A stretch of DNA of 64,000 bases from Alistipes sp. (lineage in GTDB: Bacteria > Bacteroidota > Bacteroidia > Bacteroidales > Rikenellaceae): positions 15,442-79,441 of the forward strand of contig JAFLRR010000009.1 in NCBI GenBank assembly GCA_022511345.1. The letters are read 5' to 3'. The position numbers were made by a program, and so were the translations under genes. This document shows, piece after piece, positions 29,768-40,656 of the stretch; position 1 is the first letter of the stretch, and every line of letters begins with the position of its first letter. The notes under the pieces are model-generated. The model was not told the DNA's origin and did not search any database. It saw only the letters and a program-made list of their open reading frames with translations.

Positions 29768-32700
29768 ATGAAGAAGCTTTTTGCTCTGATTCTCTCGATT
29801 TTCGCCGTCTGCACGGTATCGGCGCAGGTGACCAACTCGGGTATGAACGGTACGGTTACTGACCAGGACGGACAGCCGCTCATCGGCGCGACCGTCATAG
29901 CAGTACACACCGCATCGGGTACCGAGTACGGAACAGCGACCGACCTCAACGGCCGTTACTACATTCAGGGTATGCGCCCCGGCGGTCCCTACAAGGTGAC
30001 CATGTCGTATGTGGGCTGCCAGAGTGTAGAGTTCACCGACATTACCCTCCCGCTCGGTGAGACCGTGACCCGCAATGGATACCTCAAGGCAAGCCTCGAC
30101 ATCGACGAGGTTGTCGTAGTGGCCGAAGGCCGCAACAGCTCGATGAACGTGCACCGCTCGGGCACCTCGACCAACATCTCCAAGGAGATGATGGAGCTCA
30201 TTCCGTCGGTGAACCGCAGCATGAACGACCTGATGCGTCTGGCTCCGCAGTCGAGCACTACTACCAACGGTTTCGCTGTCGGCGGCGGTAACTACCGCCA
30301 GTCGTATGTGACCGTCGACGGTGCCGCATTCAACAACGCATTCGGTATCGGCCAGAACCTGCCCGCAAACGGCTCGCCCATATCGCTCGACGCTCTGGAC
30401 CAGATTTCGGTGTCGGTAACCCCCTATGACGTTCGTCAGAGCGGATTCACCGGCGGCGCTATCAACGCCGTGACCAAGTCGGGTGACAACGAGTTCCGCG
30501 GCTCGGTATACACCTATCTTAAGAGCAACAGCCTGCGCGGTACCAAGGCCGGCGACCAGACCATTCCCGTAGAGGAGGCTCACTCGTACACCTACGGAGC
30601 AAGCTTCGGCGGCGCGATTGTCAAGAACAAGCTCTTCTTCTTCGTCAACGGCGAGTATGACGACGAGGTAACGGCCGGCCCCTCGGGCATATGCCGCACC
30701 TCGGAGGATCAGGCTTTCGGCCAGAACGGCGTGAAGCGTCCCACGGTGAGCGACATGGACATGATGCGCAACTTCCTCAAGGAGAAGTACAACTACGACC
30801 CGGGCCGCTACAGCGGATACTCGCTCAAGACTCCCGGTTACAAGCTGCTCGCGCGTATGGACTGGAACATTTCCAACGACCACAAGCTCAACGTTCGCTT
30901 CTCGCGCACCCACTCGAAGGATTCGAGCGCTCCCTCGACCTCGGTGAACCCGCTGACCGCAAACTCCATATATCCCGGTAACACCGATCTGAACATCGGT
31001 AAGGGTCAGTCGATTACGTCGAACTATGCGATGTACTTCGAGAGCCAGCGCTACTACACCATCCGCGACTTTACGTCGGTGGCTGCCGAGCTCAACTCGC
31101 GATTCCTGAACGGCCGCATGAACAACACGCTGCGCTACACCTTCTCCTACCAGGATGAGCCCCGCGACAACGTGGGCGGTATGTTCCCCACCGTACATAT
31201 CCTCAAGGACGGTGCTCCCTACATGGCATTCGGTCCCGATGTGTTCACCGTCGGCAACCTCCGCCAGGTGGCTACCCACGTCATTACCGACGAGGTGACC
31301 TACAACTCGGGCGACCACAACATCATTGCCGGTCTGCAGTTCGAGAGCAACGACGCTGTCAACGGCTACCAGCAGGGCGGCGCAGGATTCTACGTGTTCA
31401 ACTCGATGGAGGCATTCATGAACGGCGAGAAGCCGTCGGCATTCGGCATTACCCACTCGAACTCGGCCGACCTGAAGCAGTTCCAGTCGAGAATGCAGTA
31501 TCGCCAGCTGTCGTTCTACGTGCAGGATGAGATGAACCTCCACCAGAACTTCAAGCTCACGGCAGGTCTGCGCTTCGAGGTGCCCATGTATCCCTCGCTG
31601 GCAAACAACTACAACGCTGCATATGCCGACCTCGACTTCAACGGCAAACACTACTCGACCGACCAGCTGCCCAAGGCGCGTCTGACCGTTTCGCCCCGAG
31701 TTGGATTCAACTGGGATATGACCGGCGAGCGCAAGTATGTGCTGCGCGGCGGTACGGGTTACTTCATCGGCCGCATGCCCTTCGTATGGCTCGTATCGGC
31801 AGTAGGTAACTCGAACGTGGGCCAGACCAGCTACTACTACAACGACGCTGCAACGGCTACCGGCCCGCAGCCCGACTTCCACACCAAGGTCGAGGATATC
31901 CTCAAGGACCTCTACCCCAACGGTTTCGACCCGCAGACTCCGGTCGCTCCCTCGAGCCCCACGATTCTCGACAAGAACCTCAAGATGCCCGCAGCTTGGA
32001 AGAGCTCGCTGGCAATGGATATCAAGCTCCCGGGCAACATCGACTTCACAATGGAGGGCATCTACTCGCGCGACTACAACCCCACGGTAATCTCGAACCT
32101 CAACTACATGCCCGCAGGCACTCCCGAGGAGATTATCAAAGGCTCGGGCGACATGCGCGGCAAGACGCAGGGTACATATACCAAGTACAACAACTTCTTC
32201 ATCACCAACGGTGACAACGGAGCTTACTCCTACTCGGTGACCGCTCAGCTGCACAAGCGTTTCAACTTCGGTCTGGATGTGGCATTCTCCTACACCCACG
32301 CAGGCGCCCGCAGCTACGGCGACGGTATCGGCGACCAGGTGACCTCGGCATACAAGACCAACACCTACTCGCGCGGAATGGTCAACGAGCATGAGCTCGG
32401 CTACGGTACCTATGTGGCTCCCGACCGCATACTGCTCTCGCTCAACTACCGCAAGGAGTATGCGAAGCACTTCGCAACCAACGTGGGTCTGATCTACGAG
32501 GGTTCGCAGCACGCCTTCATCGGCGGTTACTCGTACACCCGCTTCTCGTACACCTTCGACGGCTGCGTGACCGGTGACGGCGGCGCAAACAGCCTGCTCT
32601 TCATCCCCGCATCGCGCGAGGATCTGGACAAGTGGAACTTCCTGGGCACCGAAACCTACACGGCCGAGCAGCAGAAAGACGACTTCTGGGCATACATCAA

Positions 32701-33058
32701 CCAGGATTCCTATCTGAAGACCCGCAAGGGCAAGTACACCGAGCGCGGCGGCGCTATCATGCCGTGGCACCACCAGGTAGACCTCCACTTCGGTCAGGAG
32801 TTCTTCATCACCACCAAGAGCGGCAAGCGCAATACGCTCGAGTTCGGCGTGGACATTCAGAACCTGCCCAACCTGCTCAGCAAGAACTGGGGTACCTACA
32901 AGCAGATTCGCAACACCTCGCTGCTCAAGCTCAACAGCGACGGCTCCTGCCAGTACAACATGGTCAACAACCAGCGCAACACGACCACCTCGCAGACATA
33001 CAGCAGCCTGTGGTCGACGTATCGCGTGATGTTCAACGTTCGCTACCGTTTCAACTAA
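29768..33058 (+). CDS. TonB-dependent receptor, Oar-like, with N-terminal carboxypeptidase-regulatory-like domain
   Basis: Signal peptide, GTVTDQDGQPLIGATV, plug with DVRQSGFTGGAINAVTKSG, SPRVGFNWD, C-terminal FNVRYRFN. Confidence 0.93.
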   Translation: MKKLFALILSIFAVCTVSAQVTNSGMNGTVTDQDGQPLIGATVIAVHTASGTEYGTATDLNGRYYIQGMRPGGPYKVTMSYVGCQSVEFTDITLPLGETVTRNGYLKASLDIDEVVVVAEGRNSSMNVHRSGTSTNISKEMMELIPSVNRSMNDLMRLAPQSSTTTNGFAVGGGNYRQSYVTVDGAAFNNAFGIGQNLPANGSPISLDALDQISVSVTPYDVRQSGFTGGAINAVTKSGDNEFRGSVYTYLKSNSLRGTKAGDQTIPVEEAHSYTYGASFGGAIVKNKLFFFVNGEYDDEVTAGPSGICRTSEDQAFGQNGVKRPTVSDMDMMRNFLKEKYNYDPGRYSGYSLKTPGYKLLARMDWNISNDHKLNVRFSRTHSKDSSAPSTSVNPLTANSIYPGNTDLNIGKGQSITSNYAMYFESQRYYTIRDFTSVAAELNSRFLNGRMNNTLRYTFSYQDEPRDNVGGMFPTVHILKDGAPYMAFGPDVFTVGNLRQVATHVITDEVTYNSGDHNIIAGLQFESNDAVNGYQQGGAGFYVFNSMEAFMNGEKPSAFGITHSNSADLKQFQSRMQYRQLSFYVQDEMNLHQNFKLTAGLRFEVPMYPSLANNYNAAYADLDFNGKHYSTDQLPKARLTVSPRVGFNWDMTGERKYVLRGGTGYFIGRMPFVWLVSAVGNSNVGQTSYYYNDAATATGPQPDFHTKVEDILKDLYPNGFDPQTPVAPSSPTILDKNLKMPAAWKSSLAMDIKLPGNIDFTMEGIYSRDYNPTVISNLNYMPAGTPEEIIKGSGDMRGKTQGTYTKYNNFFITNGDNGAYSYSVTAQLHKRFNFGLDVAFSYTHAGARSYGDGIGDQVTSAYKTNTYSRGMVNEHELGYGTYVAPDRILLSLNYRKEYAKHFATNVGLIYEGSQHAFIGGYSYTRFSYTFDGCVTGDGGANSLLFIPASREDLDKWNFLGTETYTAEQQKDDFWAYINQDSYLKTRKGKYTERGGAIMPWHHQVDLHFGQEFFITTKSGKRNTLEFGVDIQNLPNLLSKNWGTYKQIRNTSLLKLNSDGSCQYNMVNNQRNTTTSQTYSSLWSTYRVMFNVRYRFN

Positions 33059-33115: not shown

Positions 33116-33209
33116 GCGCCGGTAATTTTGGTATTCGGGAAAATAATCGTTAAATTTGTTTAACGGAACAATTCCGGCAACCGAAGTTCAACCAAACAAC
33201 CCAAACACC

Positions 33210-34175
33210 ATGAAAGAGACTGTCAACGACATTCTTGCATTCAAGGATTCGCGCGAAAAAAGAATCCGAGAATTCATCCACAAAAAGACAACTGTAGGAA
33301 ACATAGCGATTTACAAAATCGCGGTTGCATCGTTATTCTTGCTGGCACTGCTAATCATTATGTACTGCATCGGCAACACGGAAATTTGCAAGTGCAGCTT
33401 TTTGAAATTAAAATGCGTAAGGATGTGGTTTAAGATTTCAATGATGTTCATATCGGTTATATCTGCTGCATCGGGAGTATATACCTATAGGTCGCATTAT
33501 ATCAAAATCTATATTTACAAATGCAATGTTATTTTGATAAAATTCGAAAAATACATCTGTCACTATGCCGAATTATTCGCTTTGCGTGAAAGGCTTAAAA
33601 ATGTTGAAAAAGAGATAGACGATATAGATGTGGATATGGCAATATCAGATTTGAAGAAGGATATGGCCCATCGTATTTATTATTCGCATGTTGATAAACT
33701 TAAAGAAATATCTGATTTGTTACACAAACGCGAACAAGATATAATGAAATTGTTGGAGAATAGCGATGCAAGCGAAAAATATACTCTGAATACGGAGTGC
33801 AAGCAGCTGTTCAAAGACAGAATAGAAAATGTTGAGAAAAAGCACGATATCAGAGAGCAGCATTATCGGGATATATTCGAGTGCGAGTCTGAGGAGCTGA
33901 AAGCAAAGAAGAAAGCAGAGTCACTCAAGATAGAGAAAAACGAGCTGGAGACAAGAGAAAAAGAATTTGCCAAGGAAATACAAGAAGTTTACAAAATCGA
34001 CAAGATATCATTCGAAAATTCATTCGACAAGATTTATGATAAATTCCACGATGAAATCATCAATGGAATAGATGAAGCAAGACTATTATGCACAACTAAA
34101 TCAGAGCTGAAGATTCTTTTCAGCGAACTGATACAGAAAGCTTCGCAGCTGAAGAATCCGGATATGCAATTTTAG
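33210..34175 (+). CDS. AT-rich hypothetical membrane protein (2 TM + K/E-rich coiled coil)
   Basis: Long ORF with its own promoter (TTTG 33127-33130, N20, TAAATTTG 33151-33158). Two hydrophobic stretches followed by a charged helical region. Confidence 0.75.
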   Translation: MKETVNDILAFKDSREKRIREFIHKKTTVGNIAIYKIAVASLFLLALLIIMYCIGNTEICKCSFLKLKCVRMWFKISMMFISVISAASGVYTYRSHYIKIYIYKCNVILIKFEKYICHYAELFALRERLKNVEKEIDDIDVDMAISDLKKDMAHRIYYSHVDKLKEISDLLHKREQDIMKLLENSDASEKYTLNTECKQLFKDRIENVEKKHDIREQHYRDIFECESEELKAKKKAESLKIEKNELETREKEFAKEIQEVYKIDKISFENSFDKIYDKFHDEIINGIDEARLLCTTKSELKILFSELIQKASQLKNPDMQF

Positions 34176-34375
34176 CGGCGGCACTCCGGGCGGGAACGAT
34201 TCCCGCCCGGATTCGTTTGGCGGACCGGGCTGGCCGCAGCAAACAGGCAGAAATGACGATATGCTTCAGCAAGAGGAGCGCAGAGCGATTTTCGGCGCGG
34301 AATTTGGCGATTCACGAAAAAAATCATAACTTTAGAATAGCGAACGGCTAACATTAATTAAAAAATATTAGAATT

Positions 34376-35479
34376 ATGATTATCGGTATTCCTAAAGAGA
34401 TCAAAAACAACGAGAATCGCGTGTCGATGACCCCCGCAGGCGTGAGCGAACTTGTAAAGCGCGGACACACGGTCTACATACAGACTTCGGCCGGAGCGAA
34501 CAGCGGATTCCCGGATGAGGCCTACACGGCTGTGGGTGCACAGCTGCTGCCAACCATAGAGGAGGTATATGCCAAGGCCGAGATGATTGTCAAGGTCAAG
34601 GAACCGATAGCGCCCGAATATCCGCTGATACGTCCCGACCAGCTGGTATTCACCTATTTCCATTTCGCAAGCAGCGAACCGCTGACGCACGCCATGATAA
34701 AGAGCGGCGCGATATGCTGCGCTTACGAGACTGTAGAGCGTGACGACCGCTCGCTGCCGCTGCTCATTCCCATGTCCGAGGTGGCAGGACGCATGGCTAC
34801 GCAGGAGGGATGCTACTTCCTGGAGCGTCCGCACGGCGGAAAAGGCAAGCTCATAGGAGGCGTGCCGGGTGTGCCGCCCGCGAAGGTATTCGTCATAGGT
34901 GCCGGCGTGGTGGGTACGGCTGCCGCACGCACCGCAGCAGGAATGGGTGCCGATGTGACCATATGCGACATATCGCTGCCGCGTCTGGCATATCTGGCCG
35001 ACACGATGCCGCGCGTGAAGACGCTCATGTCGTCGGAGTACAACATACGCATGGCTCTGCGCGAGGCCGACATAGTAATCGGCTCGGTACTCATACCCGG
35101 AGCCAAGGCGCCCAAGCTGGTCACAAGCGACATGCTCAAAGAGATGCAGCCCGGCTCGGTGATGGTCGACGTGGCCATAGACCAGGGCGGATGCTTCGAG
35201 ACCTCGAGACCCACGACGCACGAGGAGCCTACATACTACGTGGACGGAATACTCCACTACTGCGTTGCCAACATACCCGGAGCGGTGCCATACACCTCTA
35301 CCCTCGCGCTGACCAACGCTACGCTGCCCTATGTGCTGGCGCTGGCCGACAAGGGATGGCGTCAGGCATGCCGCGAGCGTGCCGACCTGGCGCGCGGCCT
35401 GAACATCGTAAAGGGCGAAGTGGTATCGCGCTCGGTGGCCGAAGCGTGGGGACTGCCTTACAAGGAGTTCACCTGCTGA
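34376..35479 (+). CDS. ald: Alanine dehydrogenase
   Basis: [63 protein letters not shown]. Confidence 0.97.
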
Positions 35480-35589
35480 CAGGCAAGAGTGCATGAGTAA
35501 AGAACCGCCGCGCGTGAATGTGCGGCGGTTTTGTTTTCGCAGCTGGCAACTTTTTGCTATTTTTACGGTTGAATCATCCGAACGGCACA

Positions 35590-35999
35590 ATGAAAAGAGC
35601 GATACTGGCGGCCATGCTGGCCGCAGCAGCAACAACCGCAAAATCGAAGAGCTGGAGCGCAGCGGAGCAACGGTCATAAGGTGCGATCTGGGCCAGTGCG
35701 TGGCCGAGAGGGTCGTACAGGCCGGAATTGCGCCCGACATGGCATTCACGAGCGCTGCCGAACCCGACGACAGGCTCTGCTTCTTCCACCGCAGCACCGG
35801 CACGGCGGATATATACTTCGTCTACAACCATTCGGGCAGAGCGTTCGATTCACCCATAACGCTGCGCACGCCGTGCCGGAACGTCGAGGCATGGAATCCG
35901 CTCACGGCCGAGCGCACACCCGCAGAGGCTGCGGCAGGCACTCTGCAGCTGAAGCTGGAGCCCTATCAAAGCATGTTTCTGATTGCCCGAAAGATGTAA
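35590..35999 (+). pseudogene. Probable gene remnant: signal peptide in one frame joined to a glycoside-hydrolase-like (GH106/GH2-associated) internal fragment in another
   Basis: ATG 35590 gives MKRAILAAMLAAAATTA... and stops at 35679. The -1 frame gives KIEELERSGATVI...IAPD...FFHRSTGTADIYFVYN...EAWNPLT...LKLEPYQSMFLI to 35999. Confidence 0.55.
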
Positions 36000-36065: not shown

Positions 36066-37142
36066 CTATCGCAGGCGAAGGTAGCTGCAGGACATCATGC
36101 TGCCGTCGTTGTCGCGAAGGTGCATGCCTCCGCCCTTGCAGTAGCGGAACATGCCGCATGCGGCGCACTCGTCACGGCGCATCCAGTCGCGGTCGCGGAA
36201 CGGCCCGAAGCGGTTCTCCCAGACATCGTGGAAGCTGTCGCGGTAGATGTTGCCCTGCGTGAAGTCGGAGCGGACGCTCGTGCAGCCCGAAATGGAGCCG
36301 TCGACACGCACCGAGGCAACAGAAACGCCCGCAGTGCACTCGTAGAAGTGGTCGCGGACCTCGGTCTCGTAGCTGCCGAGAAAGCCTTCGCACGCATAGG
36401 AAAGGTCGAGGCCGCAGCCGCTGCGGCGCGTGTCGCGGATGAAGTCGAGGACGCGGCGGAAATCGTCGTCGCCAAGGACCAGCGACGAGTCGTTGCGGGC
36501 GCGGCCAGAAGGGAAGATGGAGAATATGCGCCAGTAGCCTACCCCCTCGCTGAGAAGAAAGTCGCGGAACTCACCCAGGCGCGGAACCATGGCGGGAGTC
36601 ACGCACGTTATGACGTCGTAGGCAAGGCCACGGACGCGGACGATGCGCCGTATGGCATCGACGGCTCGGCGCCAGCTTTGGGGATTGCAGCGGATGTAGT
36701 TGTGCTCGGCCTCGAAGCCGTCGAGGCTGACCGACACGGAGCGCAGGCCCGAAAGAAGCAGAGAGTCGAGGCGCCGCTGAGTCAGGGCCATGCCGTTGGT
36801 AACCATGCCCCACGGATAGCCGCGGCGGGTGACCTCGGCGCCGGCAAGCTCCAAATCGTCGCGAACGAGAACCTCGCCGCCGGAGAAGATTATCAGCACA
36901 TCGGCCGGATTGACATAGGGCGTAACCTCGCAGTCGAGCACATGCAGGAAGTCGTCCAAAGGCATATCCTTAAGTGCCGGGTCGACACGGCAGTCGCTGC
37001 CGCAGTGGCGGCAGGCGAGATTGCAGCGAAGGGTGCACTCCCAGAAGAGAGTGTCGAGACGGTGAGCGGCGACCCGCTCGTCGCGAAGACGTGAGAAGAT
37101 TTCAAGTCCCAGCCGTTTCCTGAGACCCGGGCGGCAGGACAT
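36066..37142 (-). CDS. Radical SAM/SPASM enzyme (rSAM/lipoprotein-system type)
   Basis: FWECTLRCNLACRHCGSDC (CxxxCxxC), FSGGEVLVR, MVTNG, SVSLDG. SPASM C-x12-G-x4-C ... CxxC-x5-C ... C. Confidence 0.93.
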   Translation of the reverse strand: MSCRPGLRKRLGLEIFSRLRDERVAAHRLDTLFWECTLRCNLACRHCGSDCRVDPALKDMPLDDFLHVLDCEVTPYVNPADVLIIFSGGEVLVRDDLELAGAEVTRRGYPWGMVTNGMALTQRRLDSLLLSGLRSVSVSLDGFEAEHNYIRCNPQSWRRAVDAIRRIVRVRGLAYDVITCVTPAMVPRLGEFRDFLLSEGVGYWRIFSIFPSGRARNDSSLVLGDDDFRRVLDFIRDTRRSGCGLDLSYACEGFLGSYETEVRDHFYECTAGVSVASVRVDGSISGCTSVRSDFTQGNIYRDSFHDVWENRFGPFRDRDWMRRDECAACGMFRYCKGGGMHLRDNDGSMMSCSYLRLR

Positions 37143-37145
37143 GGG

Positions 37146-37505
37146 CTACTCTTTGGTATCCTCGCCCTCGCGCACGGCCTCCAGGCGGGCCTGGGCCTGT
37201 TTGAGAGAGTCGAGGTCGATGTTTTGCAGCGGAACACGAACGCCATACATCACCACATGGCCTGGAGCGGACATGCGCACCGTGTCGACGACATCGCCGC
37301 GAACAATCTCGACGGACGAAACGACAGAATCGGGCGCCTCGATGCGCACGGGACGGCGCACGCCGTACATGACATGGATGCGGGGATTGACAATCACCGT
37401 ATCGCCCGCAGGCGCGGGTTCGCTCTTGGCGCTATTTTTAGCGCCCGAGCATGCTGCCGAGAATCCCAGCAGCGACAGAATCATGAGTTTGAAACTGCGG
37501 TTCAT
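37146..37505 (-). CDS. Small lipoprotein with two (H/V)VMYGVR repeats; putative substrate of the adjacent rSAM enzyme
   Basis: MNRSFKLMILSLLGFSAAC (Cys19 lipobox-like). MYG codons at 37362-37370 and 37242-37250. TATCTTTG promoter element at 37529-37536 (minus). 3-nt gap to the rSAM ATG. Confidence 0.85.
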   Translation of the reverse strand: MNRSFKLMILSLLGFSAACSGAKNSAKSEPAPAGDTVIVNPRIHVMYGVRRPVRIEAPDSVVSSVEIVRGDVVDTVRMSAPGHVVMYGVRVPLQNIDLDSLKQAQARLEAVREGEDTKE

Positions 37506-37575
37506 GGCCTTCGTCGTTTGTAACACGGCAAAGATAGTGATTTTTTCGCAAATCCGCCCTCTCGCGCCGGCAGAA

Positions 37576-38073
37576 TCAATCGCCCGAAGCAACGGCTATG
37601 TCGGCCACGCAGGCGGCGACGAACGATATCAAATCGGCCGGAGCGATTTTGATTTGCAGGCCCCTGACGCCGGCGCTGATGTAGATGTGACTGTGCTGCT
37701 GGCAGCTCGAGTGGATGAAGGTCGGAAAATGCTTGCGCATGCCTATGGGCGAGCAGCCGCCGCGGATGTAGCCCGTAACGGGCAGCAGCTCCTTCATGGG
37801 TATCAGCTCGCAGCGCTTGTTGCCCGAGACGCGCGCCGCAGCCTTCAGGTCGACCTCGCAGTCGCCCGGAACCACGCAGACGAAGTAGCCGCTGCGGTCG
37901 CCGCGAAGCACCAGAGTCTTGAAAACGGTGCGGATATCCTCGCCCAGCTCGGCGGCCACGTGGGCAGCGGCCAGGTCTGACTCATCGACACGGTAAGGCA
38001 CCGTTCCGTAGTCTATGCCGGCCTTTTCGAGCAGGCGAACGGCATTGGTTTTGGTTATTTTGTCGTTTGCCAC
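37576..38073 (-). CDS. ybaK: Cys-tRNA(Pro) deacylase
   Basis: KTNAVRLL, VFKTLVL, GYIRGGCSPIGMRK, ISAGVRGLQI. Confidence 0.95.
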   Translation of the reverse strand: MANDKITKTNAVRLLEKAGIDYGTVPYRVDESDLAAAHVAAELGEDIRTVFKTLVLRGDRSGYFVCVVPGDCEVDLKAAARVSGNKRCELIPMKELLPVTGYIRGGCSPIGMRKHFPTFIHSSCQQHSHIYISAGVRGLQIKIAPADLISFVAACVADIAVASGD

Positions 38074-38166: not shown

Positions 38167-40656
38167 ATGTTAATGAGAACCTCGATAGCCATAATATTCG
38201 CGGTGATGAGCATTGCCGTACAGGCACAGCCTACACGTGTGCGCGGCCGGGTCACCGACGCCAACACTGGAGAGCCGCTGCCATTCGTGAGCGTCATATT
38301 CCCCGGCACGACCGTCGGAACAACCACCGACGACGAGGGTATATACTCGGTCGAAAGCCGCGAACAGGCAGACTCGGTGCAGGCAATATACATAGGATAC
38401 AGGACTCAGACGCTGCCCGTGCAGCCGCACCGGTTCAACAACATAGACATCAGATTAGAGCAGGAAGGCTTCAGCATAGACGACGTGGTGGTACTGTCGG
38501 GGCCAAACCCGGCGCATCCGCTGCTCGACAGCGTGAACCGATACAAATACAGGAACGACCCGGCCAATCTGGACAAATACTCGGTGTCCACATACACCAA
38601 AATGCAGCTCGACCTGTCGAACATAAAGCGCCGCAGCTTCAAGAACAAGCGCATGCAGCGCAACTTCGGATTCATATTCGACCATGTGGACACCTCGGCA
38701 ATGACCGGACAGAGCTATCTGCCCGTGATGATTTCGGAGTCGGCAGCAGACTACTACCACAGCAAGAACCCCGCTGTATCGCGCGAAATAATACGCGCCA
38801 GCCGGACCTCGGGATTCTCGGACAACTACACCATAGCCCAGTTCACCGGACAGCTATATGCCGACGTGAATCCATACGACAACTACATAGAGCTGTTCAA
38901 GATAAAATTCGCCGGACCGCTGTCGGGACACGGGCGAATGATATACAACTACTTCCTCGTGGACAGCATGAATATAGAGGGCCGCAAGACTTACAAGGTG
39001 AGATTCCACCCAAAGAGCCTCGCCACGCCGGTGCTGGACGGCGAGATAAACATCGACTCGGCCACATATGCCCTGCGCTCGGCCCATATGCACATGCCCA
39101 AGGGAAACAATGTCAACTGGATAAGGCATCTGCAGATAGACAACGAAAATAGGCCGGTGAACGACACATTATGGTTCCGAAAGAACGACCGGCTGTCGGC
39201 CGACTTCTCGATTGTCATGTCCGACTCGTCGAAGCTCACATCGTTCATAGGCACGCGCGAAATAGCCTACTCCGACTTCCGCCCGGGAGCGGAACTGCCG
39301 GCAAACGTGCGGGCCATGGACAACCGGATAGTGGTCGACGAGGATGTCACGCACAACGACGAGAAGTTCTGGGACAGCATAAGACCCTACGAGCTGAGCC
39401 AGAAGGAGAAGTCGATATACCGCATGGTGGACTCGGTGCAGAGCACTCCCCTGTACCGCAATATATACACGATAATAAACACAATAATAGGCGGTTACTA
39501 CAACACCAAATATGTGGGCATAGGACCCTACTCGCGAATATTCAGCTTCAACAAAATCGAGGGCGCCAGATTCCAGATAGGCGGCCGAACGACCGAGAAC
39601 CTCAGCAACCGGGTGCGACTGTCGGGATATGCGGCATACGGCACGCGCGACGAGGCGTTCAAGGGCGGAGTCGGAGTGGAGCTGATGTTCCGCCGCTCGC
39701 TCACGCGCAAGTTGGAGCTGCGATACATGCACGACATGCAGCAGCTCGGCGAGAGCGACAAGGCAATATCGTCGGCGAATCTGCTGGGGTCGATATTCTC
39801 GCGCGGAAACAAGCGCATGAGCATCATAGACCGCGCCGACATAATCTACGAACACGAGTGGCGGCACGGATTGAGCAACTTCCTGGCCCTGCAGGGACAG
39901 CGCATACAAGCCAACGCCTTCGTGCCGATGATTCGCCCCGACGGCCGAATGATGGAGTCGGTGGGCAACGTCTCGCTGCGGGTGGGAATGCGCATGTCGT
40001 TCAACGAGACGATTGTGCGGCGGCCATTCGACAAGTATCACCTCAGCTCGAAATACCCGATAGTGGGAATAGACTTCACGACGGGATTCAAGGGACTGCT
40101 GCACAACGATTTCGAATACTACCGATTGGAGGGCGAGATGCGTTACAGAATCCCGGTCCCGCCGCTCGGTTACTCGACCGTAACGCTACAGGGAGGACAC
40201 ATATTCGGGCATGTGCCCTATGTGCTGCTGAAGCTGCCCGAGGGCAACGGCACATATTTTTACGACTCGACGGCATTCTCGTGCATGGATTTCTATGAGT
40301 TTGCGGCCGACTCGTGGCTGTCGCTATTCTATGAGCACCACTTCAACGGATTTTTCCTCGGACGCATACCCTTCATGAAGCGTATGAAGATGCGCGAGGT
40401 GATAACGTTCAAAGGTATATACGGCACTCTGTCGAAGGGCAATGACGGCTCGCTGCCCGACACGCAGGCCGTGCTGCTATTCCCAGAGGGCATGACATCG
40501 GTGTCGGACCCTTACCTCGAGGCGGGATTCGGCATAGAGAACATATTCAGGCTGCTGCGCGTGGACTTCGTGTGGCGCCTCACGCACCGCGACCGCACCC
40601 GATATGACAATGTTCAGAATTTTGCAGTAAATTTGAGCCTGAGAATGCAGTTCTAA
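38167..40656 (+). CDS. Outer-membrane protein, carboxypeptidase-regulatory-like domain + DUF5686-type barrel
   Basis: RVRGRVTDANTGEPLPFVSV...GTTTDDEGIY, SFNKIEGARFQIGG, PYLEAGFGIENIFRLLRVDFVWRLT, terminal Phe. Confidence 0.85.
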   Translation: MLMRTSIAIIFAVMSIAVQAQPTRVRGRVTDANTGEPLPFVSVIFPGTTVGTTTDDEGIYSVESREQADSVQAIYIGYRTQTLPVQPHRFNNIDIRLEQEGFSIDDVVVLSGPNPAHPLLDSVNRYKYRNDPANLDKYSVSTYTKMQLDLSNIKRRSFKNKRMQRNFGFIFDHVDTSAMTGQSYLPVMISESAADYYHSKNPAVSREIIRASRTSGFSDNYTIAQFTGQLYADVNPYDNYIELFKIKFAGPLSGHGRMIYNYFLVDSMNIEGRKTYKVRFHPKSLATPVLDGEINIDSATYALRSAHMHMPKGNNVNWIRHLQIDNENRPVNDTLWFRKNDRLSADFSIVMSDSSKLTSFIGTREIAYSDFRPGAELPANVRAMDNRIVVDEDVTHNDEKFWDSIRPYELSQKEKSIYRMVDSVQSTPLYRNIYTIINTIIGGYYNTKYVGIGPYSRIFSFNKIEGARFQIGGRTTENLSNRVRLSGYAAYGTRDEAFKGGVGVELMFRRSLTRKLELRYMHDMQQLGESDKAISSANLLGSIFSRGNKRMSIIDRADIIYEHEWRHGLSNFLALQGQRIQANAFVPMIRPDGRMMESVGNVSLRVGMRMSFNETIVRRPFDKYHLSSKYPIVGIDFTTGFKGLLHNDFEYYRLEGEMRYRIPVPPLGYSTVTLQGGHIFGHVPYVLLKLPEGNGTYFYDSTAFSCMDFYEFAADSWLSLFYEHHFNGFFLGRIPFMKRMKMREVITFKGIYGTLSKGNDGSLPDTQAVLLFPEGMTSVSDPYLEAGFGIENIFRLLRVDFVWRLTHRDRTRYDNVQNFAVNLSLRMQF

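Follow-up and report, generated by a model that had tools for sequence, protein, structure and literature searches.

A two-gene unit of Alistipes sp. pairs a small lipoprotein carrying two Met-Tyr-Gly motifs with a radical S-adenosylmethionine (SAM) enzyme of the SPASM type. The unit lies on the minus strand of a 64,000-nucleotide stretch of contig JAFLRR010000009.1 (assembly GCA_022511345.1, positions 15,442 to 79,441), which is called the window below and supplies the coordinates given here. The enzyme is a member of the TIGR04133 family, and the conserved lipoprotein/TIGR04133 pair is a real enzyme-substrate module. The lipoprotein with its X-Tyr-Gly (XYG) motif is probably the substrate; the tight pairing of the two genes, the invariance of XYG, and the free variation of the rest of the protein all point to this role. 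Tyramine splicing is proposed as the chemistry, with about an even chance of being correct, on the strength of the motif and the relatedness of the enzyme family. The features of the unit are:

37146-37505, minus strand: lipoprotein gene (putative substrate or precursor), 119 residues, from the open reading frame (ORF) and its translation
36066-37142, minus strand: radical SAM/SPASM enzyme gene, 358 residues, from the ORF and matches to TIGR04133, PF04055 and PF13186
37529-37536, minus strand: TATCTTTG, read from the sequence as a match to TAnnTTTG, putative promoter element
37449-37505, minus strand: signal peptide and lipobox, lipoprotein residues 1-19 (...LSLLGFSAAC, Cys19 being the lipidation site), conserved in 29 homologs
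37350-37379, minus strand: motif 1, IHVMYGVRRP, lipoprotein residues 43-52, Tyr47 the proposed site; Met46, Tyr47, Gly48 and Pro52 are invariant in 29/29 homologs
37230-37259, minus strand: motif 2, HVVMYGVRVP, lipoprotein residues 83-92, Tyr87 the proposed second site; present in all long-form homologs
37002-37025, minus strand: CX3CX2C radical SAM motif of the enzyme (C40 N L A C44 R H C47), invariant in the enzyme alignment
36087-36338, minus strand: SPASM region of the enzyme with auxiliary-cluster residues C269, C287, C326, C329, C335 and C352; C251 lies just upstream

Between the TAG stop of the lipoprotein gene and the ATG of the enzyme gene stands one codon (CCC), a gap of 3 nt that leaves both genes in the same frame. 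Both ORFs are as an earlier note on this DNA had described them, including the 119-residue length and Cys19 of the lipoprotein. TAnnTTTG is the Bacteroidetes -7 promoter consensus, and the match TATCTTTG precedes the lipoprotein ATG by 23 nt, inside the 70-nt gap behind a YbaK-like tRNA-editing gene. The window holds 39 copies of TAnnTTTG against 12.7 expected, an enrichment of approximately 3-fold, which indicates that this genome uses the motif. No well-spaced -33 TTTG was found with TATCTTTG, and a scan of the locus for sigma-70 promoters and terminators gave nothing useful, the sigma-70 model not being applicable to Bacteroidetes. From this arrangement we infer that both genes are co-transcribed from their own promoter as an autonomous enzyme-substrate pair; of the promoter claimed in the earlier note, the consensus match is present and its function is putative.

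The amino terminus of the lipoprotein (MNRSFKLMILSLLGFSAAC) has basic residues, a hydrophobic stretch and a PROSITE-type lipobox with Cys19. The two motif copies lie 27 and 67 residues after this cysteine, and their Met codons at 37370 and 37250 are separated by 120 nt, exactly the 40 codons previously reported. The motif codons differ, and no DNA-level repeat of the two motifs was detected with a 7-nt seed, which means the copies are not a recent duplication and the repeat is kept at the peptide level. The remainder of the mature protein had been called mostly low-complexity, and is better described as variable and probably disordered.

A public collection contains the identical 119-residue protein and 28 homologs. 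Among these 29 sequences S11, L12, L13, G14, F15, A18 and C19 are invariant and M1, K6, S16, S20 and N24 are at least 90% conserved; conservation is limited to the signal peptide and the first motif, and the rest varies freely. MYGVRVP, the core of motif 2, occurs in 20/20 long forms and in none of the short forms, and the short Alistipes forms (75-91 residues) have a single motif. When 1.84 billion representatives were searched with a profile, 196 lipoprotein clusters were identified, and the counts that follow refer to the 150 of these listed, as representatives clustered at 50% identity. The dipeptide YG is present in 149/150, the sole exception being MYCVRPP, and the residue before the tyrosine is Met or Leu in 161/161 instances of YGx(1-3)P. 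The consensus is [IV]-x-[VL]-[ML]-Y-G-V-[RP]-x-P in one to three copies per protein, and 126/150 carry an LLG[FL]..C-type signal. The earlier note had staked its reading in advance on YG conservation, and the dipeptide is constant in the 29 close homologs and all but one of these distant representatives. The same data bear on whether the small ORF is a gene at all. It matches no Pfam or NCBIfam family, as might be expected of a spurious frame with a coincidental repeat, but 196 homolog clusters share its signal peptide and motif, it is always upstream of the enzyme gene, and its peptide is kept while the codons differ. The chance that the ORF or its repeat is accidental is next to nil, and homolog conservation and the constant placement upstream of the enzyme gene refute this explanation.

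A test from the enzyme side, independent of the lipoprotein profile, used 80 enzyme-found loci from Alistipes, other Rikenellaceae, Parabacteroides, Paludibacter and Azobacteroides, together with the loci of Parabacteroides distasonis and Treponema saccharophilum. The genes directly upstream nearly all encode lipoproteins with X-Y-G-[VTSCP]-[PR] soon after the lipobox. YGx(1-3)P is found in 75/120 upstream lipoprotein-like ORFs, many of the others being spurious ORFs, compared with 9/333 background ORFs. X-Y-G is conserved far above chance. In the upstream ORFs, M, E or C precedes the tyrosine (position -1), while V, T, S, C or P stands at +2 and P or R at +3; Y and G alone are constant. The order lipoprotein then radical SAM gene is kept in about 80 genomes, and no conserved third gene accompanies the pair across the compared loci. 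Two contigs with homologs of the window lipoprotein have the same pair in very different flanks. Two to four tandem lipoprotein genes are present at many loci, and one partner lipoprotein carries MYGPAPDMYGPPMPMYGPAPS; tandem genes and as many as three motifs in one protein give a layout like the precursor arrays of RiPPs, peptides that are ribosomally synthesized and then modified post-translationally.

Pairing of this kind is already curated as TIGR04133/TIGR04134, which NCBIfam describes as hypothetical equivalogs, with TIGR04134 (lipo_with_rSAM) bearing the name 'radical SAM-associated putative lipoprotein', and the window pair shares with this curated pair the gene order, the lipobox signal peptide adjoining a TIGR04133 gene (LSLLGFSAAC19), and X-Y-G-[VTS]-P. 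Partners of the Parabacteroides and Paludibacter type match TIGR04134 at 91-100 bits, and these true members carry XYG as well (EEYGTPYATFQIKG, MEYGTPNADYTVKG and SCYGMPENYYSIKG, with motifs such as EYGTP and MYGTP); they have nothing else in common with the window lipoprotein. Their body of about 100 residues, immunoglobulin-like or CarboxypepD_reg-like (...KGKV...DxDGxENG), is absent from the short, variable window protein, and they have one motif copy 5-12 residues after the cysteine rather than two copies 27 and 67 residues after it. The window lipoprotein does not match TIGR04134 at E <= 0.1 (family cutoff 39.8 bits). Of the family assignment in the earlier note, the TIGR04133 half therefore stands and the TIGR04134 half does not. 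The window lipoprotein is a partner type outside the TIGR04134 model.

The enzyme scores 561.2 bits against TIGR04133 (rSAM_w_lipo; cutoff 425), with residues 7-357 covering profile positions 1-349 of 350, and contains the Pfam domains PF04055 (52.7 bits) and PF13186 (30.4 bits, residues 269-329). Seven cysteines beyond CX3CX2C are invariant in 15 enzyme homologs. The absence of a signal peptide places the enzyme in the cytoplasm. Its homologs, grouped at 90% identity, number more than 7,800 clusters and occur in more than 586 species-representative genomes, with identities of approximately 70% across Alistipes and 52-55% to Parabacteroides.

The next-best families for the window enzyme are AhbD (106 bits), the TIGR03913 'GDL motif' maturases (104), TIGR04103 (101), NirJ2 (100) and TIGR04053 (98); dynobactin (61), WGK (47) and YhhB cyclophane (38) enzymes score lower. 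TIGR04103 is the PlpX splicease family, IPR026482 (PMC11002830), and the 100.9 bits of the window enzyme fall far short of its cutoff of 725, as the 106 and 100 bits for AhbD and NirJ2 fall short of 500. The reverse search, with a TIGR04103 enzyme encoded on a Nostoc plasmid, gave TIGR03913 at 414 bits, AhbD at 154, TIGR04133 at 152 (full length) and NirJ2 at 148, so TIGR04133 is the third-best foreign family of that enzyme. The two proteins are 28% identical over 296 residues and share WE.TL.CNLAC.HCGS, in agreement with the resemblance to splicease amino termini noted earlier. A specific clustering with spliceases did not hold up: TIGR04103 scores no better than AhbD or NirJ2. Judged by these profile scores, TIGR04133 shares a SPASM subgroup with the spliceases but lies no nearer to them than it does to the tetrapyrrole enzymes, and with equal scores on both sides the enzyme sequence alone cannot decide the chemistry. 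In sequence searches against solved structures the only matches were distant radical SAM enzymes (BlsE, 50 bits; anSME, 34 bits), none of them a splicease.

These scores are the basis for a different reading, in which the enzyme acts on a tetrapyrrole or other cofactor, the lipoprotein is a carrier or receptor, and XYG is a binding or sorting motif. The AhbD (heme b) and NirJ2 (heme d1) profiles score as high as the peptide-modifying families, and the high conservation of the enzyme looks like that of a housekeeping function. Neither tetrapyrrole nor cofactor genes are conserved nearby, however; what is conserved is the pairing with an XYG lipoprotein. A cytoplasmic enzyme and an exported lipoprotein could meet only before export, and an invariant motif, a varying remainder and tandem partners are typical of a substrate. 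A non-peptide substrate is accordingly improbable.

At X-Y-G, spliceases remove the equivalent of tyramine, and an alpha-keto-beta-amino amide remains (PMC11414181; PMC10533398). The natural X in the first splicease systems was Met or Leu (PMC9811515), the splice sites in RcsA and RasA are MYG and LYG (PMC11626197), and published splice tags are GGPIRP(L/G)YGLPI and GAVAA(G)YGVVFPG (PMC10533398). The Nif11 precursor adjoining the TIGR04103 gene in Nostoc ends in SIALYGLPPELF, with the core SIALYGLPP. Set against these cores, the lipoprotein consensus [ML]-Y-G-V-[PR]-x-P matches both the required dipeptide and the usual context, and it resembles LYGLP and xYGVVFPG. The tyramine spliceases and their spliceotides (PlpX/PcpX/RhaX, TIGR04103; Morinaka 2018, Scott 2022, Richter 2024) resemble the window pair in combining radical SAM and SPASM domains, in a conserved X-Y-G (X = Met or Leu) followed by [VL]-P, and in having one or several motif copies. 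They differ in the amino terminus of the substrate, which in the window pair is a Sec/lipoprotein signal peptide and not a Nif11- or NHLP-type leader, and in that the window locus has no leader protease or exporter; the product would remain lipid-anchored. The TIGR03913 family, which matches the window enzyme at 104 bits, also has small neighbors with xYG: the DUF1843 proteins adjoining a TIGR03913 enzyme start with IRMLYGG and IKPYGV, placing MLYGG or KPYGV at the amino terminus. Those partners are cytoplasmic helical proteins of Proteobacteria, not lipoproteins, and the enzyme is larger at about 515 residues.

Modification of XYG need not be splicing. SPASM enzymes carry out many tyrosine-directed reactions, with PqqE, MftC, RrrB and the cyclophane-forming enzymes as examples, and the candidates here are a Tyr C-C or C-O crosslink (a Y-G-V cyclophane or a ryptide-like Tyr-Arg bond), epimerization, beta-hydroxylation, and Tyr C-alpha/C-beta cleavage. 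The distance of the enzyme from the TIGR04103 cutoff (101 versus 725 bits) leaves room for such a reaction, and in the Alistipes-type motif Val at +2 and Arg/Pro at +3 are conserved well enough for a neighboring residue to take part. Across the family nothing but Y and G is constant, which provides no fixed crosslink partner; the cyclophane, WGK and dynobactin families score 38-61 bits compared with 101-104 for the splicease families, and the X-Y-G-[VL]-P context fits known splice sites. Another radical reaction on XYG is the less likely course, at somewhat better than one chance in four. Thioether chemistry of the sactipeptide or ranthipeptide type was rejected, the mature lipoprotein having no cysteine besides the lipidated one.

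The tyramine-splicing proposal envisages the following order of events. The pre-lipoprotein would be made with its Sec/lipoprotein signal peptide and bound, while unfolded and before Sec export, by the cytoplasmic radical SAM/SPASM enzyme. Binding would probably occur, at least in part, through the conserved signal peptide LSLLGFSAAC used in the manner of a RiPP leader; the signal peptide is thus proposed, from its conservation, to double as a recognition element. The enzyme would act on Tyr47 and Tyr87 of the Met-Tyr-Gly motifs, most likely by excising tyramine (C8H9NO, about -135 Da per site) and leaving an alpha-keto-beta-methionine amide in the backbone. Export, lipidation on Cys19 and anchoring in the envelope would then follow as in established lipoprotein biology. 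A precedent for modifying first and exporting afterward is anSME/ChuR, a SPASM enzyme that modifies exported proteins while they are still in the cytoplasm, ahead of Sec export, in Bacteroides among others. The window enzyme is not of that type (34 bits to PDB 4K37, with TIGR03942 outside its 25 best families), and an anSME reading was discarded on the substrate side because the lipoprotein lacks the sulfatase C/S-x-P-x-R motif. The proposal as a whole, a pre-lipoprotein spliced by a TIGR04133 enzyme in an autonomous two-gene unit, is given even odds on this comparative evidence. The narrower scheme, in which the signal peptide acts as a RiPP-style leader that directs an electrophilic backbone modification, is held more tentatively, at a little under even.

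Several observations weigh against splicing. The window enzyme is shorter than TIGR04103 enzymes and has no C-terminal extension, and it is as similar to the tetrapyrrole-acting AhbD and NirJ2 as to the spliceases. A Y-protein or RiPP recognition element (RRE) gene is absent beside the pair; two-component spliceases without a Y protein do exist, with a leader helix filling the Y-protein site (PMC11414181). The lipoprotein search profile itself includes the motif, which makes the distant-homolog test partly circular. Some paralogous partners have Y-A (CYAPYDAEF, PAYAPLHEEY) or Y-Y (PYYVL) replacing Y-G (loci L053, L057, L058, L060 and L073; L054, L064 and L069), and these are either non-substrates or a sign of a relaxed glycine requirement. 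A single-chain AlphaFold2 model of the fusion lipoprotein-X-P-enzyme placed the motif without confidence from a shallow alignment of 36 enzyme homologs; the mean predicted local distance difference test score was 64.7, with 22-49 in the lipoprotein part and 40-66 in the SPASM part. The literature search found no experiment on any TIGR04133 member.

The role of a spliced product is a matter of speculation. Ketoamides in the envelope could bind Ser or Cys hydrolases or another nucleophile, and by analogy with spliceotides (PMC11626197) the product might be a protease inhibitor, which is considered unlikely at roughly one chance in four. No protease, exporter/transporter or RRE gene is among the neighbors of the pair in the window, and none is conserved at the other loci, as the earlier note had observed for this one. 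Its further suggestion, a membrane-retained product that faces proteases of the host or of competitors, is doubtful for this particular protein. Acidic residues form the surface-export signal of Bacteroidetes lipoproteins, and the stretch SGAKNSAK that follows Cys19 is basic, not acidic; lacking this signal, the window lipoprotein may face the periplasm. Several TIGR04134-type partners do carry acidic residues after the cysteine.

No relevant paper on the TIGR04133 pair or on spliceotides with lipoproteins was found in the literature search. In a survey published in 2022 (Chem 8:2659), Scott et al. reportedly looked for YG-rich neighbors of all radical SAM-SPASM proteins in the UniProt reference proteomes and arrived at 939 predicted and 27 characterized splicease systems from 189 genera, and TIGR04133 may already be listed there. 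If it is not, the window pair would represent a splicease variant with lipoprotein substrates, a signal peptide replacing the leader and an anchored product. TIGR04133 is a very large family with strong conservation in major gut genera, and the pair is found across Bacteroidales. Splicing by these enzymes, if true, would extend ribosomal beta-amino acid and ketoamide chemistry beyond secreted peptides to anchored envelope proteins, would make the pair a compact splicing system of two genes, with no accessory protein, and would turn electrophilic backbone modification, known to date from released peptides, into a widespread cell-envelope feature of dominant gut commensals. It would also raise the question of what the electrophilic sites bind in the periplasm or at the cell surface.

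Variation among the TIGR04133 loci takes several forms. Two loci per genome are present in several Alistipes (L039 and L054, L025 and L067, L042 and L057, L020 and L069), one with an enzyme 63-72% identical to that of the window and short MYGVP-type lipoproteins, the other with an enzyme 57-60% identical and TIGR04134-like lipoproteins. Expanded Alistipes clusters (L068:1128-5538; L053 and L058) contain three tandem TIGR04134-like lipoproteins and a 169-residue membrane protein. In these clusters a second, unrelated SPASM radical SAM enzyme (348 residues; best NCBIfam match GeoRSP, 102 bits) is encoded directly upstream of the TIGR04133 paralog, and one further lipoprotein follows the paralog. 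One paralog group (L054, L064, L069, L052 and others) has Tyr-Gly directly after the predicted lipidated cysteine (LTCVAC-YG...), and there the would-be beta-amino acid residue would be the lipid-bearing Cys itself. Outside Bacteroidota, a TIGR04133/TIGR04134 pair on Treponema saccharophilum pTS1 (L082:2616-4092) adjoins an Mpi-family DNA invertase gene, which suggests transfer and possibly phase-variable expression.

The window locus was detected in three gut-metagenome DNA runs, and no RNA runs carrying it were found. Its immediate neighbors are:

37576-38073, minus strand: YbaK-type tRNA-editing protein
35493-35999, plus strand: remnant of a GH106 alpha-L-rhamnosidase, the last ~75 residues matching profile positions 664-737 of 743
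34376-35479, plus strand: alanine dehydrogenase

The GH106 remnant sits between the alanine dehydrogenase gene and the radical SAM operon. Farther along, positions 33150-34200 form a low-GC island (32-40% GC compared with a window mean of 58%) that was probably acquired horizontally. It contains an orphan ORF of 339 residues (33156-34175, plus strand) that has no Pfam match and TAnnTTTG motifs just upstream. The flanking outer-membrane proteins at 38167-40656 (plus strand; DUF5686) and 29768-33058 (plus strand; a TonB-dependent-type barrel) both have CarboxypepD_reg-like domains at their start. A weak match (E = 0.00043) also links the TIGR04134-type lipoprotein body to the N-terminal region of a SusC/RagA model; the resemblance may be coincidental.

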